A DNA stretch of 64,000 nt from a virus. Shown here one piece after another: positions 1 through 37,665 of the stretch (positions are counted from its first letter, which is position 1; each line of letters opens with the position of its first letter). The notes beneath the pieces are model-generated. The model was not told the DNA's origin. It saw only the letters and a list, made by a program, of their open reading frames with translations, and did no database searches. The position numbers were made by a program, and so were the translations under genes. The DNA is taken from the UHGV virus genome UHGV-0291501. One strand, given 5' to 3'.

Positions 1-153
1 AAATATTAGATAACCACACTCAAAGAGTCAAGAAAAATTTTAAAAATATTTTTGGCAAAACTGTAATGAAACGGGCGCACACGACTACCACAAAACAGAA
101 CACAAATCAAGAATTATTTTTCAATCCGCTACAAATTTTTCTCTTGACTTTTA

Positions 154-183
154 GGGAGAGGGGGAGTAAGAGGGGGAGAGGGG
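154..183 (+). other. G-run tract matching a canonical G-quadruplex motif (G3-N3-G5-N7-G5-N3-G4)
   Basis: Read directly: gggagagggggagtaagagggggagagggg in a non-coding stretch; folding not computed. Confidence 0.3.
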
Positions 184-206
184 TTGGTCTGGCTCTCTAT
201 AAAAAC

Positions 207-350
207 CTACCTGCACAATTCTAAAATGATTTTTCTTGCCCGACCTGAGCGGGGTCTGCACGTTTTGAAAATGATTTTTCTATCCGGCGATGAGATTTTT
301 TGGGATATCTGTACAGACCCCTACAGATACCTGCACAAATTGAAAATGAA
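207..350. repeat. Three spaced direct repeats, core CTGCAC-N8/9-AAAATGA (iteron-like)
   Basis: Copies at about 211-236, 257-282 and 331-350, plus 8-bp palindrome ctgtacag at about 308-315. ORF 184..369 here starts at TTG and its repetitive KMIFL peptide just reflects the DNA repeats. Confidence 0.45.
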
Positions 351-351
351 A

Positions 352-398
352 AAGGCCGCCTTACCTTAAATTTTTCAATGGGTTAGGCAGCCTTCTTA
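352..398 (-). terminator. Imperfect long hairpin followed by U-rich tract on minus strand (candidate terminator)
   Basis: Arms ggccgccttacc / gggttaggcagcc with about 14-nt loop; lies just downstream of minus-strand gene ending at 428. Confidence 0.3.
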
Positions 399-427
399 GA
401 TGATTTGTAGATACTATGAAGTGCTAA

Positions 428-1207
428 TCAGCTTATGAATTTGAACTTTTTAGAATACAGCAAGTAGTGAACTTCATCCTGATTTGTTGTGTAGATGTAT
501 GCTGCTGGGTAGTTATTAAAGAACACCCCTTCATATCTTCCAAACGGGTCAACTGGGAACATTTCACTGTTACACATACCCATCTCACTAACCAGAGGGT
601 AACTAACCTCAACCTTGCCATCAACAAGCTGATAGAGGGTAACTTGATTAGTCTTCCCGTCACTTAGCACGACACCATCATAGAATTGTGGTGCTGAGGT
701 AGCATACTTAGGGGTAACTACACTTGCCATTGCTTCATCATAGACGTAGAGGTACACATCAACGTTATACATAACACTATTAATGAGGCTTTTCACAGCT
801 TGTGCATCTAAACCGCCTATACCTGCCCCAATCATGGGTAAACCAATCTTACGAATGTTGTGCAGCCAGCAAAATTTACGGAGTTTTTCTAGTGACTCCA
901 CTAAGTATCGGTATGATGCACACTTCCCAACATCCAACTGTGTATATAGGTTAAAAATGTAACCATACTCCGTTCGAGCATGTGACACCTCACCAACCAT
1001 CTGGTATCCGATATCATGAGCACTGTAGCCAAACTTTTTATGGAATTTCCGGTCAGCTTCTTCAGCTTTTGGGAAAATCTTAGCAATTTTTTGAGCGATT
1101 CCAGCACCCATGAGGTTACGACAGTTGCAACCATGAGCAATTAACTCAATATCTGTGTTTTTGAAGGCAGCCAGTAAGTTACCTTTTACAACTTTTACAA
1201 TACCCAT
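428..1207 (-). CDS. Macro-domain protein (TARG1/OARD1/DarG-like N-terminal domain) with uncharacterised C-terminal extension
   Basis: N-terminal motif HGCNCRNLMGAGIAQKIAK resembles the TARG1-type macro signature; remaining ~110 aa unrecognised. Confidence 0.5.
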   Translation of the reverse strand: MGIVKVVKGNLLAAFKNTDIELIAHGCNCRNLMGAGIAQKIAKIFPKAEEADRKFHKKFGYSAHDIGYQMVGEVSHARTEYGYIFNLYTQLDVGKCASYRYLVESLEKLRKFCWLHNIRKIGLPMIGAGIGGLDAQAVKSLINSVMYNVDVYLYVYDEAMASVVTPKYATSAPQFYDGVVLSDGKTNQVTLYQLVDGKVEVSYPLVSEMGMCNSEMFPVDPFGRYEGVFFNNYPAAYIYTTNQDEVHYLLYSKKFKFIS

Positions 1208-1408
1208 TTAACATCTCTCCCAAGATTCTTTATCTTCTGAAGGTTTTACACGTTGTCCTTCGTGGTCTACCCAGATACACCCGCAACCTTCACAGATTAC
1301 TGGCATTGCATAGCCAGCTTTAAAGTCATCTTCAGTGATAAGACCTTTTAAGTCACCTGTATCACGTCCGAACATTTCGATAGAACAGTCTTTGCAGAAG
1401 TCAGCCAT
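1208..1408 (-). CDS. Small Cys-rich protein, probable zinc-binding, hypothetical
   Basis: 66 aa with CKDC ... CEGCGC pattern; tightly packed in the minus-strand operon. Confidence 0.45.
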   Translation of the reverse strand: MADFCKDCSIEMFGRDTGDLKGLITEDDFKAGYAMPVICEGCGCIWVDHEGQRVKPSEDKESWERC

Positions 1409-1420
1409 ATAATATACACC

Positions 1421-1648
1421 TTATAGTTCAGTTTCTCGTAATTCTTTGCCTTCATCATAGAAGCATTTATAAAATGTATCTATAGAAATTCTGGCAAAGG
1501 TGAGGTCTTCAAAGTATTCTTCTGGAGTTATCCCTGTGAAACTAAAGTTATCGAGATTGTAAAACGGTATCACTGTGTCGTCACTAACGAAAACACATGC
1601 TGATGTAACTTCTCCAGTGTCTTTATCAATTACCTCTAGAGCTTTCAT
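1421..1648 (-). CDS. Hypothetical protein
   Basis: 75-aa ORF in operon context; no recognisable motif. Confidence 0.4.
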   Translation of the reverse strand: MKALEVIDKDTGEVTSACVFVSDDTVIPFYNLDNFSFTGITPEEYFEDLTFARISIDTFYKCFYDEGKELRETEL

Positions 1649-1955
1649 AGTTTACCTTCTCAGTTAGCTCATATAAATCAACATGCTCAATACTGTCAAT
1701 GTTGATATCAATCTTTTTGAAACGTTCTATCACTTCGTTGTCAGTCATCCATATCAGACACCAATGATTCTGGATGGATTCTTCAAGAAGGTCAACACAA
1801 TCTTTAAAAGTTTTTGTATCACTTCTTGTTCCAACTACTGCGATTGTCCCATACAACCACTTACCATTGCCATAAGATACTTGTGCTACGCCAACTTCTT
1901 TATCTTTCTCGTAGTAAACGGCTACAAAGTCTCTTCCATTAATCTGCATAGTCAC
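1626..1955 (-). CDS. Hypothetical protein
   Basis: 109-aa ORF; start overlaps upstream stop; no motif. Confidence 0.45.
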   Translation of the reverse strand: MTMQINGRDFVAVYYEKDKEVGVAQVSYGNGKWLYGTIAVVGTRSDTKTFKDCVDLLEESIQNHWCLIWMTDNEVIERFKKIDINIDSIEHVDLYELTEKVNYESSRGN

Positions 1956-2221
1956 TTCCTCGTTTTAAGAACTGCTAAGATTTCTTTAGAATCTGGTAAG
2001 AACCATGTGTAGTGATTCTCTTTGATTTCTGGATGAGTGTCAACCTTTATTTTGCAATCTTTACCAACATGCTTAAGCTGTGCTGTGACACCTTGCATAA
2101 AGATATGACACATCACATTATCCATAATGGTTGGTAAGAAATCGATTCGCATATAAGTTTCTTTTGGTCGTGGCAACAGTAAGTAACCTTCTACATAGAA
2201 AGTGTCTTGATTCTCTGTCAT
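1952..2221 (-). CDS. Hypothetical protein
   Basis: 89-aa ORF; ATGA-type overlap with neighbour. Confidence 0.45.
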   Translation of the reverse strand: MTENQDTFYVEGYLLLPRPKETYMRIDFLPTIMDNVMCHIFMQGVTAQLKHVGKDCKIKVDTHPEIKENHYTWFLPDSKEILAVLKTRK

Positions 2222-2487
2222 TGCTGCTTATTCCCTAATAAAATCATGTCAATAAGGTTATTAGCTTTAATTGTACACTGGTAAAAGCCGTCACGGTAGA
2301 ACTCAAGTGCTGCTGCTACATCACTGCCTGTGTTGCCTTTGATGATATACCGTGATTCTTCTTGAGTGTACTTATCACTCTCACTTACTTGGGAGTTTTT
2401 GAATGTACTGTTCACTTTGTTCGTTGAACACCCTGACATAATTATCAGTAACACAAACATTATAAAACTCTGGCTTAGTTTTTTCAT
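2218..2487 (-). CDS. Putative lipoprotein, possible o-spanin (Rz1-like)
   Basis: Signal peptide with lipobox (LLIIMSGC); out-of-frame overlap with the 3-prime end of 2381..2728; RBS gaggt upstream. Not Pro-rich, so the spanin call is tentative. Confidence 0.35.
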   Translation of the reverse strand: MKKLSQSFIMFVLLIIMSGCSTNKVNSTFKNSQVSESDKYTQEESRYIIKGNTGSDVAAALEFYRDGFYQCTIKANNLIDMILLGNKQQ

Positions 2488-2728
2488 ATGTTAGTACCTC
2501 TTTTGTGTGCTTATTCTTAGCAAGCACATCTTTCAAATCATTTTTGTAATTGGTGCTCAGTGTAGCTAATCCTTCCTGATAAGCATCTTTAGCAACACTT
2601 ATCAGCTTCTCATTATTTAGCTCAGTTTCAGCAACTTGGTAGTCTCTGTAAGAGTATCCTCCCCAGACACCTGCCCCAACTAAGAAAACAATTATGAAAG
2701 TAGCTTGACAGAACTCTTTAAATGTCAT
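2381..2728 (-). CDS. Membrane-anchored coiled-coil protein, possible i-spanin (Rz-like)
   Basis: N-terminal TM helix (FIIVFLVGAGVWGG) then charged helical region; overlapped by the lipoprotein ORF in another frame. Confidence 0.35.
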   Translation of the reverse strand: MTFKEFCQATFIIVFLVGAGVWGGYSYRDYQVAETELNNEKLISVAKDAYQEGLATLSTNYKNDLKDVLAKNKHTKEVLTYEKTKPEFYNVCVTDNYVRVFNEQSEQYIQKLPSK

Positions 2729-2740
2729 TTAACAATCTCC

Positions 2741-2768
2741 TGAAATGAAAAAGGCTCCCGAAGGAGCC
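2741..2768 (-). terminator. Rho-independent terminator
   Basis: Hairpin ggctcc-cgaa-ggagcc followed on minus strand by UUUUUCAUUU; sits between genes ending 2781 and starting 2728. Confidence 0.6.
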
Positions 2769-2780
2769 TGTATCTTAACC

Positions 2781-3260
2781 TTAACCGAGGACTTTAGCAA
2801 GGATATTCGCAGCCATCGAAGAAGCTTTTGCAGCAGCAACTACGCCAGCTTTGACAGTGCTATCCTTAATAGCAGATACCGTTGCAGCATCAGTAAAGAG
2901 ATAAGTGATTGTTTTGGAACCACTTGTAAAGGAAAGCATAAGAGTAGTTTCCAGATTGAAAGAGCGATACGGAGCACCTTCTTTAACGATACCTTCAGCA
3001 CCTAACTCTGAAGCCTTACCCATATCATAGATAGTCATCAGGTTTTCTTTGTGTGCAGTCGTTGAACCAACACCTTTTACGTGCTTCTTAACGTTCAACA
3101 ATGCACGATATTCGCGAATGCTACCATCAGCTTTTACATTAACAGCACGGAAAATTTTACCTTCAAAGTTACCTTGAATCATTTTACGAACTACTTCAGA
3201 TTTGTTTGCCGTATCGTCCAGTGCTACCGTAATGATATTGTTCATAAGTTCTTCTCTCAA
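2781..3260 (-). CDS. Hypothetical protein
   Basis: 159-aa ORF; an alternative start at 3245 (MNNIIT) has a better purine-rich RBS. Confidence 0.45.
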   Translation of the reverse strand: MREELMNNIITVALDDTANKSEVVRKMIQGNFEGKIFRAVNVKADGSIREYRALLNVKKHVKGVGSTTAHKENLMTIYDMGKASELGAEGIVKEGAPYRSFNLETTLMLSFTSGSKTITYLFTDAATVSAIKDSTVKAGVVAAAKASSMAANILAKVLG

Positions 3261-3952
3261 TGTTTAACTAACATAGTTTTAATGTGTGGAAGGATTCTGT
3301 TTACCTTCTGAACATTCTTCTCTGTATCTTCTATAAAGCATACTATATTAAAGTAAGGAAGAATGCAAGACTGAATCATCCTCACTTTCAAACTTTCTGC
3401 ACTTATAGAGTTAGTTCCAAAACCACGCATAAAAAGCAAGTAATCATGCTCTATATTGTGCCTTAAAAAAATCTCAGTAGGTATTCTCTGAGATTCACCT
3501 CTTGCTGTCAAGAGTCCAACTGCTGCATGATTTGCAATTGCATCAATAATGTTGAAAACATATGTTGGCTTTGCTCTTACAGAATCAAGAAGATTAGTGT
3601 ACTGTGAGAATGACCCATCAGTCAATTCCGTTGAGCAATCTTCGTGATTAAAATTTGTAAGAACACCATCAATATCTGCTAAGATGAGGTTACCTTTTTC
3701 TACAAGGTCTTTATTGACTATCACTAAACTATCACGCCTTACACCTATAGTTTGTCCAGTCTCTTTGTCCACAACGTTCACAATGGGTTCTGATGTGTGG
3801 AACTCTTCAAGTGAACATACAACCTCTCTTGCAGTGTCTTCAAAATCTCTGCACTGTTCTGGAGTCCATACACAGGAATCAAGACCTAACTCATGAGGAT
3901 GCAAGTCATAAGCGTGGCACAGGACTTCATCAGACTTTCTTAATTTTTTCAT
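3257..3952 (-). CDS. HAD-superfamily phosphatase-like protein (possibly 5-prime(3-prime)-deoxyribonucleotidase-like)
   Basis: Motif ILADIDGVLTNF (HAD motif I DxDG) and LLTARGES (motif II-like); N-terminal ~80 aa unrecognised. Confidence 0.4.
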   Translation of the reverse strand: MKKLRKSDEVLCHAYDLHPHELGLDSCVWTPEQCRDFEDTAREVVCSLEEFHTSEPIVNVVDKETGQTIGVRRDSLVIVNKDLVEKGNLILADIDGVLTNFNHEDCSTELTDGSFSQYTNLLDSVRAKPTYVFNIIDAIANHAAVGLLTARGESQRIPTEIFLRHNIEHDYLLFMRGFGTNSISAESLKVRMIQSCILPYFNIVCFIEDTEKNVQKVNRILPHIKTMLVKH

Positions 3953-4478
3953 GATTTACCTTAGAAATGTTTGTTGCAAATTCACATTGAGCGATAACTT
4001 TCATATTGTTATAGACATCTTGAGAGTATTTCTTAGCTTTAGGGATTCTATACGAATACCCAGCATTATATGATGCTAAAACTTTTTGTAAAGTCTTCTT
4101 TGACTTTGGGTGACCATGTACCTTCGTCCAAAACTCAAGCTCTTTATGTGTTTCTTTTGCGGCATAGTCAAAATCTTTTAAGAGTTTCTTTTTAGCAACA
4201 TTAGGACTAATTTTGTTACGCTTTACAACAGTCTTCAAGTGATTCTGGAAGATACCATAGTCATGGGTCTTTTTATTTTCTACCTTCAGACCTAACTCTG
4301 ACTCTTGTAAGGCTATAGCTGCTAGAGTGATACCCCAACCTTTACCCATGTTATTCTCACCATACTGGTAAGCTTTTAACATGTTCACTTTTTGGCTAAT
4401 TGATAGCTCTGGGCAGTCAACTGCATAAGATAAGTGTGCTGTAAACATTAAGCACAAACCTAGAATCAATTTCTTCAT
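3930..4478 (-). CDS. Secreted lytic transglycosylase-like protein (SLT domain); candidate endolysin or cell-wall remodelling enzyme
   Basis: N-terminal signal peptide MKKLILGLCLMFTAHLSYA; catalytic-type motif ALQESELG ... DYGIFQNH. Confidence 0.5.
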   Translation of the reverse strand: MKKLILGLCLMFTAHLSYAVDCPELSISQKVNMLKAYQYGENNMGKGWGITLAAIALQESELGLKVENKKTHDYGIFQNHLKTVVKRNKISPNVAKKKLLKDFDYAAKETHKELEFWTKVHGHPKSKKTLQKVLASYNAGYSYRIPKAKKYSQDVYNNMKVIAQCEFATNISKVNHEKIKKV

Positions 4479-4532
4479 TGGTTCTCCTGTTTAGTTTATC
4501 GTGACAACAATTATACAGCACTCTGCACAAAA

Positions 4533-4563
4533 TACAAATAAAAAAGGCCGCCGAAGCAGCCTT
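4533..4563 (-). terminator. Rho-independent terminator
   Basis: Minus-strand RNA GGCUGC-UUCG-GCGGCC (one G-U pair) followed by UUUUUUAUUU; downstream of gene ending 4579. Confidence 0.55.
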
Positions 4564-35958: not shown

Positions 35959-36035
35959 GAGCAGCATAAACCAACGGGTACTCACCAGCATCACTTAAGA
36001 GTCTTCTAAGAGGGTTTTTAAGTAATGTGATGTTT

Positions 36036-36119
36036 GGTTTGGTGTGGTCAGGTAATGTGATGTCTGGTTTAGTGCGGTGATGTGCGGTCCGGTAAGGTCC
36101 GGTGCGGTAAAGTGCGGGT
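36036..36119 (+). repeat. Phased pentamer tract 1A: about 17 tandem (G/N)GTNN units
   Basis: ggttt ggtgt ggtca ggtaa tgtga tgtct ggttt agtgc ggtga tgtgc ggtcc ggtaa ggtcc ggtgc ggtaa agtgc gggta; strict 5-bp phase. Confidence 0.7.
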
Positions 36120-36177
36120 AGTTAGTCTCAGCTACATTAAAATGAGACTTACCTTTTTAAAAGGTCTTTAAGAGGGT
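36116..36177 (+). repeat. 62-bp hairpin module, copy 1 (identical to 37527-37588)
   Basis: gggtagttagtctcagctacattaaaatgagacttacctttttaaaaggtctttaagagggt; 7-bp stem agtctca/tgagact; 15-bp palindrome acctttttaaaaggt. Confidence 0.75.
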
Positions 36178-36186
36178 TTTTTAATG

Positions 36187-36270
36187 AGGTAGGGTAAAGT
36201 AATGTTTGGTCTGGTTTGGTAAGGCGCGGTCTGGTTTGGTAAGGTAAGGTTCGGTATGGTATGGGTGGAT
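36187..36270 (+). repeat. Phased pentamer tract 1B: about 17 GGTNN units
   Basis: ggtag ggtaa agtaa tgttt ggtct ggttt ggtaa ggcgc ggtct ggttt ggtaa ggtaa ggttc ggtat ggtat gggtg. Confidence 0.7.
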
Positions 36271-37462: not shown

Positions 37463-37530
37463 ATGAGGTAGTATACGGTATGGTGGGGTAGGGTGAGGTC
37501 TGGTTTGGTAAGGTAGGGTCTGGTATGGGT
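37463..37530 (+). repeat. Phased pentamer tract 2A: about 13 GGTNN units
   Basis: ggtag tatac ggtat ggtgg ggtag ggtga ggtct ggttt ggtaa ggtag ggtct ggtat gggta. Confidence 0.7.
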
Positions 37531-37588
37531 AGTTAGTCTCAGCTACATTAAAATGAGACTTACCTTTTTAAAAGGTCTTTAAGAGGGT
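37527..37588 (+). repeat. 62-bp hairpin module, copy 2 (identical to 36116-36177)
   Basis: Same 62-bp string as copy 1, compared by eye base for base. Confidence 0.75.
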
Positions 37589-37596
37589 CTTTTAAC

Positions 37597-37665
37597 AAGG
37601 TTAGGTTAGGTCTGGTGTGGTAGGGTTAGGTGGGGTTAGGTTTGGTATAGTTTGGAAGGATGGCA
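37597..37665 (+). repeat. Phased pentamer tract 2B with telomere-like TTAGG/TTAGGG units
   Basis: ggtta ggtta ggtct ggtgt ggtag ggtta ggtgg ggtta ggttt ggtat. Confidence 0.7.

Follow-up and report, generated by a model that had tools for sequence, protein, structure and literature searches.

A conserved non-coding repeat cassette between two transcription units of Felix O1-like phages

Introduction

Felix O1-like phages are classic tools of diagnostics and biocontrol, and the Felix O1 genome paper states explicitly that the mechanism of transcription regulation is not known. The window analyzed here, a 64,000-nucleotide stretch of a Felixounavirus nearly identical to phage ECML-1, begins with DNA in which a four-run G tract, spaced direct repeats, and an 8-bp palindrome had been noticed from the sequence, and all of these features were recovered at the predicted positions. 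What is the role of such a locus: a genome end, a gene, a protein-binding DNA array, or a template for RNA? Region 121-350 is the core of a non-coding cassette at the boundary between two transcription units; few non-coding elements of the subfamily are as well conserved. The cassette probably either gives rise to a small RNA that contains the repeats or is bound by a protein. Either a repeat-containing RNA or an array bound by a regulator would provide a concrete starting point for studying gene control or host interaction in this group and would correct GenBank annotations.

Genomic Context

The non-coding stretch spans about 490 nt; it starts some 60 nt outside the window, to the left of position 1, extends to position 427, and is flanked by two minus-strand genes. 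The original prediction, which gave about 300 bp without coding capacity, was right about the non-coding nature (no conserved frame, periodicity, or synonymous signal) and too short in extent. Its description as a left-end region did not hold: the left edge is that of the window and not of the genome, the mapped ends of which lie about 7 kb further left. The gap contains the terminator of a macro-domain gene, the repeats, the G tract, and a back-to-back pair of putative sigma-70-type promoters. Downstream gaps of the same phage hold repeated stem-loop cassettes.

The macro-domain ('phosphatase') gene (428..1207, minus strand) is always convergent with the array at its 3' end. Its allele in the window is rare, with 13 records being at least 95% identical and the others about 41%. 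The operon running from rIIA to this gene stops at a strong intrinsic terminator (343..397, minus strand), composed of a hairpin and then UUUUUCAUUUU, which is homologous to t13 in the Felix O1 terminator list. The minus-strand fold reached -23.3 kcal/mol (z = -5.1), while the hairpin read on the plus strand was weaker (-19.6 kcal/mol, z = -2.4) and had a poor U tract. At the other side of the gap, a sigma-70-type promoter, TTGACT-17-TAATAT (3..31, minus strand; scan score 9/12), restarts transcription into a cluster of small genes running leftwards out of the window toward the genome end; the next gene begins about 61 nt left of position 1. The counterparts of this promoter are TTGACA-17-TACTAT in Felix O1, read from the sequence, and TTGACT-17-TATATT in an Erwinia phage (10/12).

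Structure and Conservation of the Repeat Array

Three exact copies of CTGCAC-N6-AAAATGA start at positions 211, 256, and 331, at intervals of 45 and 75 nt. The three direct repeats reported earlier are therefore real, with a spacer of 6 nt in place of the 8 or 9 nt first given. The observed number of matches to the motif was reached in 0 of 100 shuffles. Repeat unit 1 (207..249, plus strand) has the core CTGCACAATTCTAAAATGA at 211-229, followed by TTTTTCTTGCCCGACCTGA; repeat unit 2 (252..294, plus strand) has the core CTGCACGTTTTGAAAATGA at 256-274, followed by TTTTTCTAT; and repeat unit 3 (327..352, plus strand) has the core CTGCACAAATTGAAAATGA at 331-349. The A-rich 3' half of unit 3 is the complement of the terminator T tract, and the array extends up to the hairpin that it shares with the terminator. 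The module of about 26 nt comprises GCAC, a 6-nt spacer (consensus RWWTYN), AAAATGA, five A/T bases, and then C or G. No further copy of the motif was found elsewhere in the 64-kb window or in the remaining 24.9 kb of ECML-1; since it is confined to the array locus, a general promoter or terminator motif of the phage was ruled out. The 8-bp palindrome CTGTACAG (309..316) is present as predicted and carries no weight, because about 0.9 such palindromes are expected per 230 nt. It is not conserved, and the relatives have TCTCTACAGA repeats at its position instead.

The array was found in every Ounavirinae lineage examined, including phages of E. coli, Salmonella, Citrobacter, Hafnia, and Erwinia, in three to four copies of a single orientation. 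Five lineages were compared, namely Felixounavirus, the Moogle/Susp-type phages, a Hafnia phage, two Erwinia contigs, and contig L113. In all of them the order is the macro gene, the terminator, the convergent array of three to four modules, a promoter-like site oriented with the array (except in L113, where none was recognized), and the divergent promoter for the next gene. Between genera, the modules are 89-100% identical, whereas the adjacent macro protein shares 36% identity and the rest of the gap about 38% at the nucleotide level. Unit 1 of the window matches unit 2 of the Erwinia phage at 32 of 36 nt, unit 2 of the window matches unit 1 of the Hafnia phage at 24 of 26 nt, and unit 3 of the window matches the last unit of the Erwinia phage at 22 of 22 nt, this Erwinia unit not being fused to the terminator. 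The spaced, non-coding repeats are thus under strong purifying selection subfamily-wide, as would be the case for a functional iteron-like or regulatory element. Unrelated sequence in related phages, which the original prediction had named as a sign against function, was not found for the repeats, and was found in part for the G tract.

The intervals between modules are irregular, being 45/75 nt in the window and 45/39/73, 45/41/75, or 39/37/37 nt in other lineages. No helical phasing was detected among the spacings of the lineages compared (37, 39, 41, 45, 73, and 75 nt), which are not conserved modulo a helical turn. Extra repeated boxes lie beside the array in the Hafnia phage (TGTAAAG) and in contig L113 (TGTTAA), the latter resembling repeats of the terminal-repeat region. 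BLAST searches for a bacterial or plasmid counterpart of the array returned none. A pattern scan of 185,579 genomes yielded, apart from Ounavirinae contigs, nothing but chance tandem repeats, which were either protein-coding or simple arrays of 21 nt, and among the matches listed for a metagenome pattern scan there were likewise only chance tandem repeats or Ounavirinae contigs.

Promoter-like Site on the Array Strand

Window positions 100-274 could be aligned in 256 phage records. They include a highly conserved A/T-rich block (100..153, plus strand), near-invariant in a 30-sequence alignment, which ends in TTGACTTTT and provides, on the antisense strand, an upstream element and a -35 box. 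This box belongs to a promoter-like site, P+ (145..173, plus strand), with TTGACT at 145-150, a 17-nt spacer, and TAAGAG at 168-173, which aims into the repeats and is antisense to the flanking genes. In the window, the -35 box matches the consensus at 5/6 and the weak -10 box at 3/6 positions; the promoter scan made no call because the -10 box lacks its final T. The equivalent sites, which agree in position and orientation, are TTGACT-17-(TGn)TAGCCT in the 'version B' Felixounaviruses and TTGACA-17-(TGn)TATGGG in the Hafnia phage, both with an extended -10, and TTGACG-18-TATACT in the Erwinia phage (10/12 by scan, about 135 nt upstream of the array). In total, in four of five lineages a TTGAC(N) box precedes a 'TA' by 17-18 nt on the array strand.

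A Candidate Repeat-Containing RNA

The best reading of these data, held tentatively and at somewhat below even confidence, is that the cassette may specify an accessory non-coding RNA built of repeated protein-binding modules. The plus strand would be transcribed from P+ into an AU-rich, largely unstructured non-coding RNA of about 170-220 nt. RNA rather than DNA would be the active form, and the modules would serve as binding sites for a protein, so that the transcript could act as a sponge or a regulator. The cassette would be accessory and not essential. Consistent with this reading, synteny and orientation hold in the five lineages examined, a promoter-like site lies on the array strand in four of them, and the modules are far better conserved than their surroundings. 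Reading frames differ between lineages and there is no coding signal, which also suits a non-coding transcript. Moreover, a transcript tolerates variable, unphased module spacing more easily than a cooperative DNA-protein array does. The -10 box of the window, with only 3/6 matches, argues against it, and the conservation of the promoter cannot separate an RNA-level from a DNA-level function, as a promoter directed into DNA iterons is also typical of replication origins.

Also against this reading, the predicted array RNA folded no better than shuffled sequences in the window (z = -0.98) or in the Erwinia phage (z = +0.46), and a stable RNA structure was rejected apart from the terminator hairpin. 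Most relatives have no convincing plus-strand terminator that would define the 3' end of the transcript. Known RNA families and tRNAs were rejected: Rfam gave no match to the array at E ≤ 10, the best Rfam match (ctRNA_p42d) covered the terminator hairpin only, with 21 bits against a gathering score of 50, and a tRNA model search of the region detected no tRNA. A literature search for a transcriptome or start-site map of any Ounavirinae phage found none.

Insertion data are available for Bas63, in which 'gene 96' spans the array. In PhageMaP, where barcodes are inserted and a higher score means non-essential, the published scores for insertions in this 'gene' range from +0.24 to +0.98, within the non-essential range under all four conditions read. 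An essential origin or packaging role is consequently unlikely. One barcode insertion may not abolish a four-module array, so 'non-essential' is a weak statement here.

A more specific version of the RNA reading is rather improbable as it stands. The transcript would be a phage 'repeat RNA' with three to four conserved AU-rich modules, each having an invariant GCAC...AAAAUGA, which would act on a host RNA-binding protein or nuclease by titrating or mimicking its ligand; the candidate targets would be a type III-like toxin, Hfq, RNase E, or a translational repressor. If true, this would represent an RNA-based counter-defence or host-takeover device common to all Felix O1-like phages and dispensable on laboratory hosts.

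The antitoxin RNAs of type III toxin-antitoxin systems offer a comparison: ToxI is made of 36-nt repeats, and phage PhiTE carries a pseudo-ToxI. The ToxI sequence used was verified against pECA1039, and toxI arrays were confirmed in bacteria that these phages infect, on small E. coli, Salmonella, and Hafnia plasmids. The cassette resembles ToxI in its order of promoter-like site, direct repeats, and hairpin, and has in every unit an invariant A-rich AAAU core like a ToxN cleavage site. The likeness is closest in the Erwinia relatives, where repeats of 37-39 nt (period 37, 3.8 copies) lie between a promoter scoring 10/12 and a hairpin; the window has irregular 45/75-nt intervals and a weak promoter. 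Unlike ToxI, the array has no adjacent toxin gene, the sequence downstream on its strand being antisense of the macro gene; its units vary within one array, and the searches of bacteria and plasmids found no counterpart of its motif. A ToxI mimic was rejected, since alignment was no better than for shuffled units on both strands (p > 0.05) and there was no Rfam match.

Promoter/stem-loop cassettes also punctuate the early regions of large virulent phages, as exemplified by the 'PeSL' elements of T4. The locus resembles them in having a terminator and then a strong host-type promoter between blocks of small early genes. PeSL elements are dispersed and repeated through the early region, whereas the array is single-copy, antisense, and conserved at one syntenic position.

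Possible DNA-Level Function or Relic

It is possible, though somewhat unlikely, that the modules act as DNA, as iterons or operators recognized by a DNA-binding protein of the phage or the host. This protein would then insulate one transcription unit from the other, control the pair of divergent promoters, or mark a secondary, transcription-activated replication origin. Iteron arrays are known from phage and plasmid origins and regulatory regions, such as lambda ori, P1 oriR, and the T4 oriE repeats. Like these, the locus holds at least three direct copies of a 17-22-bp motif at one unique non-coding site, with A/T-rich DNA alongside and a promoter-like site directed into the array; exact 19-nt cores number three in the window, and most relatives have four. 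In addition, the 17-19-bp core is bipartite, some copies show partial dyad symmetry (GAAAATGATTTTC), the adjoining promoters are divergent, and the TGTAAAG and TGTTAA boxes adjoin the array in some lineages. All copies have one orientation relative to the promoter, which also fits a transcript. The array differs from known iterons in its irregular, unphased, and lineage-variable spacing (37-75 nt) and in having no recognizable initiator gene nearby: Pfam and PHROG searches with ten neighbouring proteins gave no informative match, and neither an initiator nor a DNA-binding domain was detected in them. The sites lie at +30 to +170 relative to P+ and at -180 to -320 relative to the promoter on the minus strand, an unusual placement for operators. 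A requirement in cis for phage growth, as would be typical of iterons, was not seen given the positive Bas63 scores; the insertions are tolerated, and the array is therefore not a sole origin, although the scores would be compatible with redundant origins. A GC-skew signature of an origin was ruled out as well, because the skew shows no inflection at the array and follows the direction of transcription. By-eye comparison with consensus sequences, a weak test, found no fitting site for sigma-54, CRP, LexA, IHF, Fis, DnaA, or boxA.

Whether the repeats are parts of small protein genes was considered in view of the existing annotations, among them BPS17L1 gp012, Michonne gp098, wV8 gene 13, and Bas63 gp96/gp97. 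It is very unlikely that these ORFs are real. Many relatives do have open frames of 36-78 aa on both strands, and a 61-aa plus-strand ORF of the window, which weakly matches phrog_15689 (E = 0.002), takes all three repeats in one frame. It does so because the 45- and 75-nt spacings are multiples of three; in most relatives, however, the last copy is out of frame (73 nt), the 41-nt spacing of the Moogle type shifts the frame, and the Hafnia phage frame has stops within the motif. Furthermore, there is no 3-nt periodicity (variable sites by phase 11/14/14) and no synonymous excess in any frame, and the ATG inside the modules is not preceded by a Shine-Dalgarno sequence. A repeated coding sequence (the 'YLHxxKM' peptide) was ruled out on the basis of the lineage-dependent frames, the Hafnia stops, and the lack of periodicity and synonymous excess. 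Strands and frames also differ among annotators, and GenBank draws the region as at least four mutually incompatible 'hypothetical proteins'.

Very little credence is given to a non-functional relic, in which the units would be decayed tandem duplications of terminator-flanking sequence and the G tract a chance low-complexity insertion. The A-type units (AAAATGAAAAAG) do mirror TTTTTCATTT, the T tract found at the end of two or more Felix O1 terminators (among them t5 and t13), copy number and spacing differ between lineages, and insertions are tolerated. Decay is contradicted by the contrast in identity between the modules and both the flanking protein and the surrounding non-coding DNA, by the retention of the array in every lineage examined, and by the last Erwinia phage unit, which is separate from the terminator.

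The G Tract

The G tract GGGAGAGGGGGAGTAAGAGGGGGAGAGGGG (154..183, plus strand) overlaps the spacer, the -10 box, and the predicted start of P+. As predicted, it fits the consensus of a canonical G4 (four runs of at least 3 G with loops of 1-7 nt), its own four runs being separated by loops of 3, 7, and 3 nt. No other canonical G4 motif occurs on the plus or minus strand of the 64-kb window; in random windows from a Markov-1 model the mean was 0.033 motifs, and 10 of 300 such windows had at least one. The G4Hunter score was 2.3-2.36, compared with 1.6 for the next-best region of the window. The tract is also a perfect purine mirror repeat, with 13/13-nt arms GGGAGAGGGGGAG around TAA and one T breaking the purine run; it thus has the homopurine-homopyrimidine mirror symmetry that characterizes H-DNA. 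In these sequence-predicted properties and in its overlap with a promoter core, it is similar to promoter-proximal G-quadruplex/H-DNA elements; it differs from them in that it is not conserved across the family.

The tract was found in 15 of 34 related sequences, which does not bear out a conserved requirement for a G4. It is kept in the Felix 'version A', Moogle, and Susp lineages. It is missing from the version B Felixounaviruses and from the Erwinia and Hafnia relatives. In about half of the Felixounaviruses, including the well-growing Bas63, it is swapped for an unrelated, non-G-rich sequence of equal length, and the Erwinia and Hafnia counterparts are G-rich yet outside the G4 consensus. 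Judged from this distribution, the G tract is a lineage-specific variant of a promoter-proximal segment and not the conserved functional core; it could influence how the promoter opens, or adopt a G4 or triplex DNA form. That it is the functional centre of the locus, regulating transcription or replication through a G-quadruplex or an intramolecular triplex (H-DNA), is highly improbable in spite of its unique G4 motif, top score, and perfect 13-nt symmetry, its overlap with the P+ core, and its retention in three lineages. A direct repeat of AGAGGGGGAG, a unit that is symmetric in itself, can account for the mirror symmetry. Several public assemblies (EC106, Andreotti, KhF1, L016, and L023) break at or beside the tract, which suggests that it is hard to amplify or sequence; as a sign of quadruplex folding, such breaks are no more than an indirect hint.

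Genome Ends

The G tract would explain why assemblies tend to break at the locus, and such breaks could pass for a genome end. Three GenBank records and several metagenomic contigs do start or end within about 100 nt of the tract; the idea that the region is a genome terminus or pac site nevertheless has a practically negligible probability and was ruled out for the major termini, because the published and annotated direct terminal repeats map to another non-coding region, outside the window and about 7 kb away, where ends were placed both experimentally and with PhageTerm. The record ends near the tract disagree by several nucleotides and carry assembly artefacts, namely inverted duplications (Andreotti), runs of N (KhF1), and a Nextera adapter (L023).

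The terminal repeat of UAB_Phi87, mapped with Bal31, measures 608 bp (PMC4837284), that of Ro111lw 613 bp (PMC6454146), and the annotated one of Pr103Blw 581 bp. The Pr103Blw repeat and the start of the Ro111lw record are homologous to ECML-1 positions 71410-72634, and the array corresponds to ECML-1 positions of about 64218-64356. The direct terminal repeats of Felixounaviruses are non-coding, repeat-rich, and conserved, like the array, and differ from it in their locus, their CTTGTTA-type motif, and their mapping as physical ends.

Identity and Genomic Context

The window phage is a Felixounavirus: positions 1-3000 share 98.5% identity with Escherichia phage ECML-1, and positions 100-420 are 100% identical to Salmonella phage BPS17L1. 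Region 121-350 lies within a gap of ~490 nt with a minus-strand gene on each side, namely a macro-domain ('phosphatase') gene (428..1207) on the right and the first gene of a small-gene cluster, which starts ~61 nt left of window position 1. The originally predicted 'left end' is therefore a boundary of the window and not a genome end. The macro-domain allele (window 275-1207) is rare: 13 records reach at least 95% identity, against ~41% at the protein level for the remaining Felixounaviruses. Just left of the window, in BPS17L1 (678-4555), gaps of 66-102 nt between the small downstream genes hold two alternating, recurring stem-loop cassettes, GGGGCTTAAAAG...TTAAGCCCC and GGGGAGGGAATGACCTTCCCC, each followed by a Shine-Dalgarno sequence; some are listed as 57-bp direct repeats in the Felix O1 paper.

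Organization and Conservation of the Repeat Array

The gap contains three exact copies of CTGCAC-N6-AAAATGA (211, 256, and 331; plus strand, one common orientation), which is far beyond chance, and the motif is absent from the rest of the phage genome. The repeats of the original prediction are thus real, with a spacer of 6 nt rather than 8/9; its 8-bp palindrome, CTGTACAG (309-316), is also present but explained by chance expectation. Upstream, a plus-strand block (100-153) nearly invariant in 256 phage records has TTGACT as its 3' end, and TAAGAG, 17 nt past this hexamer and embedded in a G tract, forms the -10 box of the promoter-like site P+ (145-173, plus strand). On the plus strand, the last repeat overlaps the complement of the T tract of the macro gene terminator, a strong intrinsic one (343-397, minus strand; -23.3 kcal/mol, z = -5.1) followed by UUUUUCAUUUU and homologous to terminator t13 of Felix O1. 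At least two intrinsic terminators of this phage, t5 and t13, share the tail TTTTTCATTT (PMC3185647, Table 2), which is complementary to the A-type half of the repeat module, AAATGAAAAA. The small-gene cluster is transcribed anew from a sigma-70-type promoter, TTGACT-17-TAATAT (31..3, minus strand).

In an alignment of 34 related sequences, the repeats were universal among the relatives compared, unlike the 57-nt segment before them, where part of the relatives have the G tract swapped for unrelated sequence. Most Felixounaviruses have four repeats spaced 45/39/73 nt (45/41/75 in the Moogle type). The nucleotide match of most relatives ends at window position ~274, which places a recombination breakpoint within the array, after unit 2 and before unit 3. 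Architecture, syntenic position, and orientation are all kept in distant relatives. In Hafnia phage SarahDanielle, whose macro protein is 34% identical to that of the window, TTGACA-17-(TGn)TATGGG precedes a G-rich stretch and four TATAAGCAC-N6-AAAATGA units. In the Erwinia phage contigs, four units form a compact array of period 37-39 (TRF: period 37, 3.8 copies). A promoter scoring 10/12 (TTGACG-18-TATACT) lies on the array strand ~135 nt upstream, the next gene has a divergent promoter that also scores 10/12, and the macro gene terminator sits just past the array. The units are present in a more divergent contig (L113), too. Between genera, module identity amounts to 32/36, 24/26, and 22/22 nt, versus 36% for the macro proteins and ~38% for the remaining gap, giving an invariant core of GCAC, a 6-nt spacer (consensus RWWTYN), AAAATGA, five A/T, and C or G.

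Possible Function

The element is a conserved direct-repeat non-coding cassette, familiar in kind; it appears to be undescribed so far and to represent a new sequence family. Its most economical reading, which we put forward tentatively from sequence features, is an antisense non-coding transcription unit, in which the promoter-like site P+ would read across three to four modules toward the shared hairpin, yielding an unstructured AU-rich RNA with the modules as putative protein-binding sites. The orientation of promoter and array conserved in all lineages, the lack of constraint on repeat spacing or phasing, and the uniqueness of the locus in the genome favor such an RNA, while the weak -10 box in the window's lineage and the undefined RNA 3' end disfavor it. 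The main rival, a DNA-level array of binding sites (regulator site, insulator, or secondary origin), is somewhat less likely; origins typically have promoters that read into their iterons, so the promoter features are compatible with it as well. A PhageMaP insertion screen of Bas63, a Felixounavirus with the unrelated segment in place of the G tract, gives scores for 'gene 96' (units 1 to 4 of the array) and none for 'gene 97' (conserved block and P+). The 'gene 96' fitness of +0.24 to +0.98 in four conditions is comparable to other dispensable genes in these data, where essential genes score ~-1 to -2.7. These scores suggest that the array is accessory in laboratory conditions, which makes it unlikely to be the only origin or packaging signal. 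Judged by the between-genera comparison, purifying selection clearly acts on the modules, and a decayed relic is very improbable. The originally proposed iteron-like functional repeats were partly right.

With regard to the proposed antisense RNA, no known RNA family or tRNA matched the cassette, and no stable plus-strand fold was found (z = -0.98 in the window and +0.46 in the Erwinia equivalent). The promoter-repeats-hairpin layout and invariant AAAU core resemble type III antitoxins; however, the phage units are only as similar to ToxI as shuffled units and the cassette has no toxin gene, which argues against a pseudo-ToxI. On ~6-kb mobilizable plasmids (collection H196-H220), toxI arrays that match the one in Pectobacterium pECA1039 exactly are widespread in E. 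coli (49 records), Salmonella (12), Klebsiella, Yersinia, and Hafnia; ToxIN is thus common in hosts of these phages. BLAST of plasmids and E. coli genomes gave no bacterial counterpart, and the matches listed from pattern scans of GTDB genomes, IMG/VR, and metagenomes were all either Ounavirinae contigs or tandem repeats that are unrelated. The latter include 21-nt tandem arrays of CT(C/T)TGCAC-N6-(A/G)AAATGA, which has the bipartite motif of the phage core, in unrelated bacteria (L055 82-230, Prevotellaceae MAG; L108 3411-3763, Caldilineaceae MAG; and L080); their context is uninformative, and with 596 Gb scanned they are probably coincidental.

ORFs have been drawn across the cassette on both strands (BPS17L1 gp012, Michonne gp098, wV8 gene 13, and Bas63 gp96/97). 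These four differing 'hypothetical protein' annotations in GenBank/RefSeq, unlike in strand and frame (window -3..224 (+), 184-369 (+), and 151-261 (-)), are probably all spurious. Neither 3-nt periodicity nor synonymous excess was found in the region among relatives, and real small ORFs are highly unlikely. Coding repeats were rejected as well: the motif frame differs by lineage, most phages have the last copy out of frame, and in the Hafnia phage the frame is not open.

G Tract

The predicted G4-consensus tract, GGGAGAGGGGGAGTAAGAGGGGGAGAGGGG (154-183, plus strand), is indeed present; neither strand of the 64-kb window has another canonical G4 motif (~0.03 expected per random window), and the tract has by far the top G4Hunter score (2.3; next region, 1.6). 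It is a perfect purine mirror repeat, a symmetry that can arise trivially when the self-symmetric unit AGAGGGGGAG is directly repeated. The 57-nt segment from TTGACTTTT to the first repeat exists in three versions: the G tract (Felix O1, the window, and SUSP2), a G-rich variant still matching the G4 motif (Moogle type), and an unrelated sequence of equal length, not G-rich, giving the better promoter TTGACT-17-(TGn)TAGCCT. Conservation thus does not support G4 as a key feature; a G4-centered function has little probability, and the tract is best regarded as a dispensable form of the promoter-proximal segment that is specific to certain lineages.

Long GGTNN pentamer arrays, all on the plus strand, occupy window positions 36031-36265 and 37477-37651 (34 overlapping matches versus 0.05 expected); those at 37.4-37.7 kb are non-coding, and AAGGTCTTTAAGAGGGTCTTTTAA lies ahead of each array. 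Since GGTCTGG, found in these arrays, also adjoins the G tract (186-192) and occurs in the G-rich stretch of the Hafnia phage, the tract and the arrays may share ancestry or function.

Genome Ends

Felixounaviruses carry short direct terminal repeats, as known for UAB_Phi87 (608 bp, Bal31 and run-off sequencing; PMC4837284), Ro111lw (613 bp; PMC6454146), and Pr103Blw (581 bp, annotated 1..581 of its record; PMC8303462). The terminal-repeat region is a ~1.2-kb non-coding stretch dense in CTTGTTA(A/G) and CTGTTAAG boxes (Ro111lw 1-1250 and Pr103Blw) with no match to the window. In ECML-1, it corresponds to 71410-72634 and the array to ~64218-64356, ~7 kb apart, so the genome end or pac reading was wrong and a terminus at 121-350 is exceedingly improbable. 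Several public records and contigs do begin or break off at the G tract (EC106, Andreotti, KhF1, L016, and L023). These breaks are taken to reflect a tract difficult to amplify or sequence rather than a physical end, because they disagree by a few nucleotides and come with artefacts: inverted duplications at both start and end of Andreotti (MN850610), an N-rich, low-quality start in KhF1 (KT184313), and a Nextera mosaic-end adapter at the start of IMG/VR contig L023. EC106 (ON210138) is missing ~230 nt to the left of this tract. Another database sequence, L027, is presumably a chimera of the start of E. coli mukB and phage sequence. Contig L113 has TGTTAA boxes, like those of the terminal-repeat region, ahead of its repeat array, and the Hafnia phage has TGTAAAG boxes in their place.
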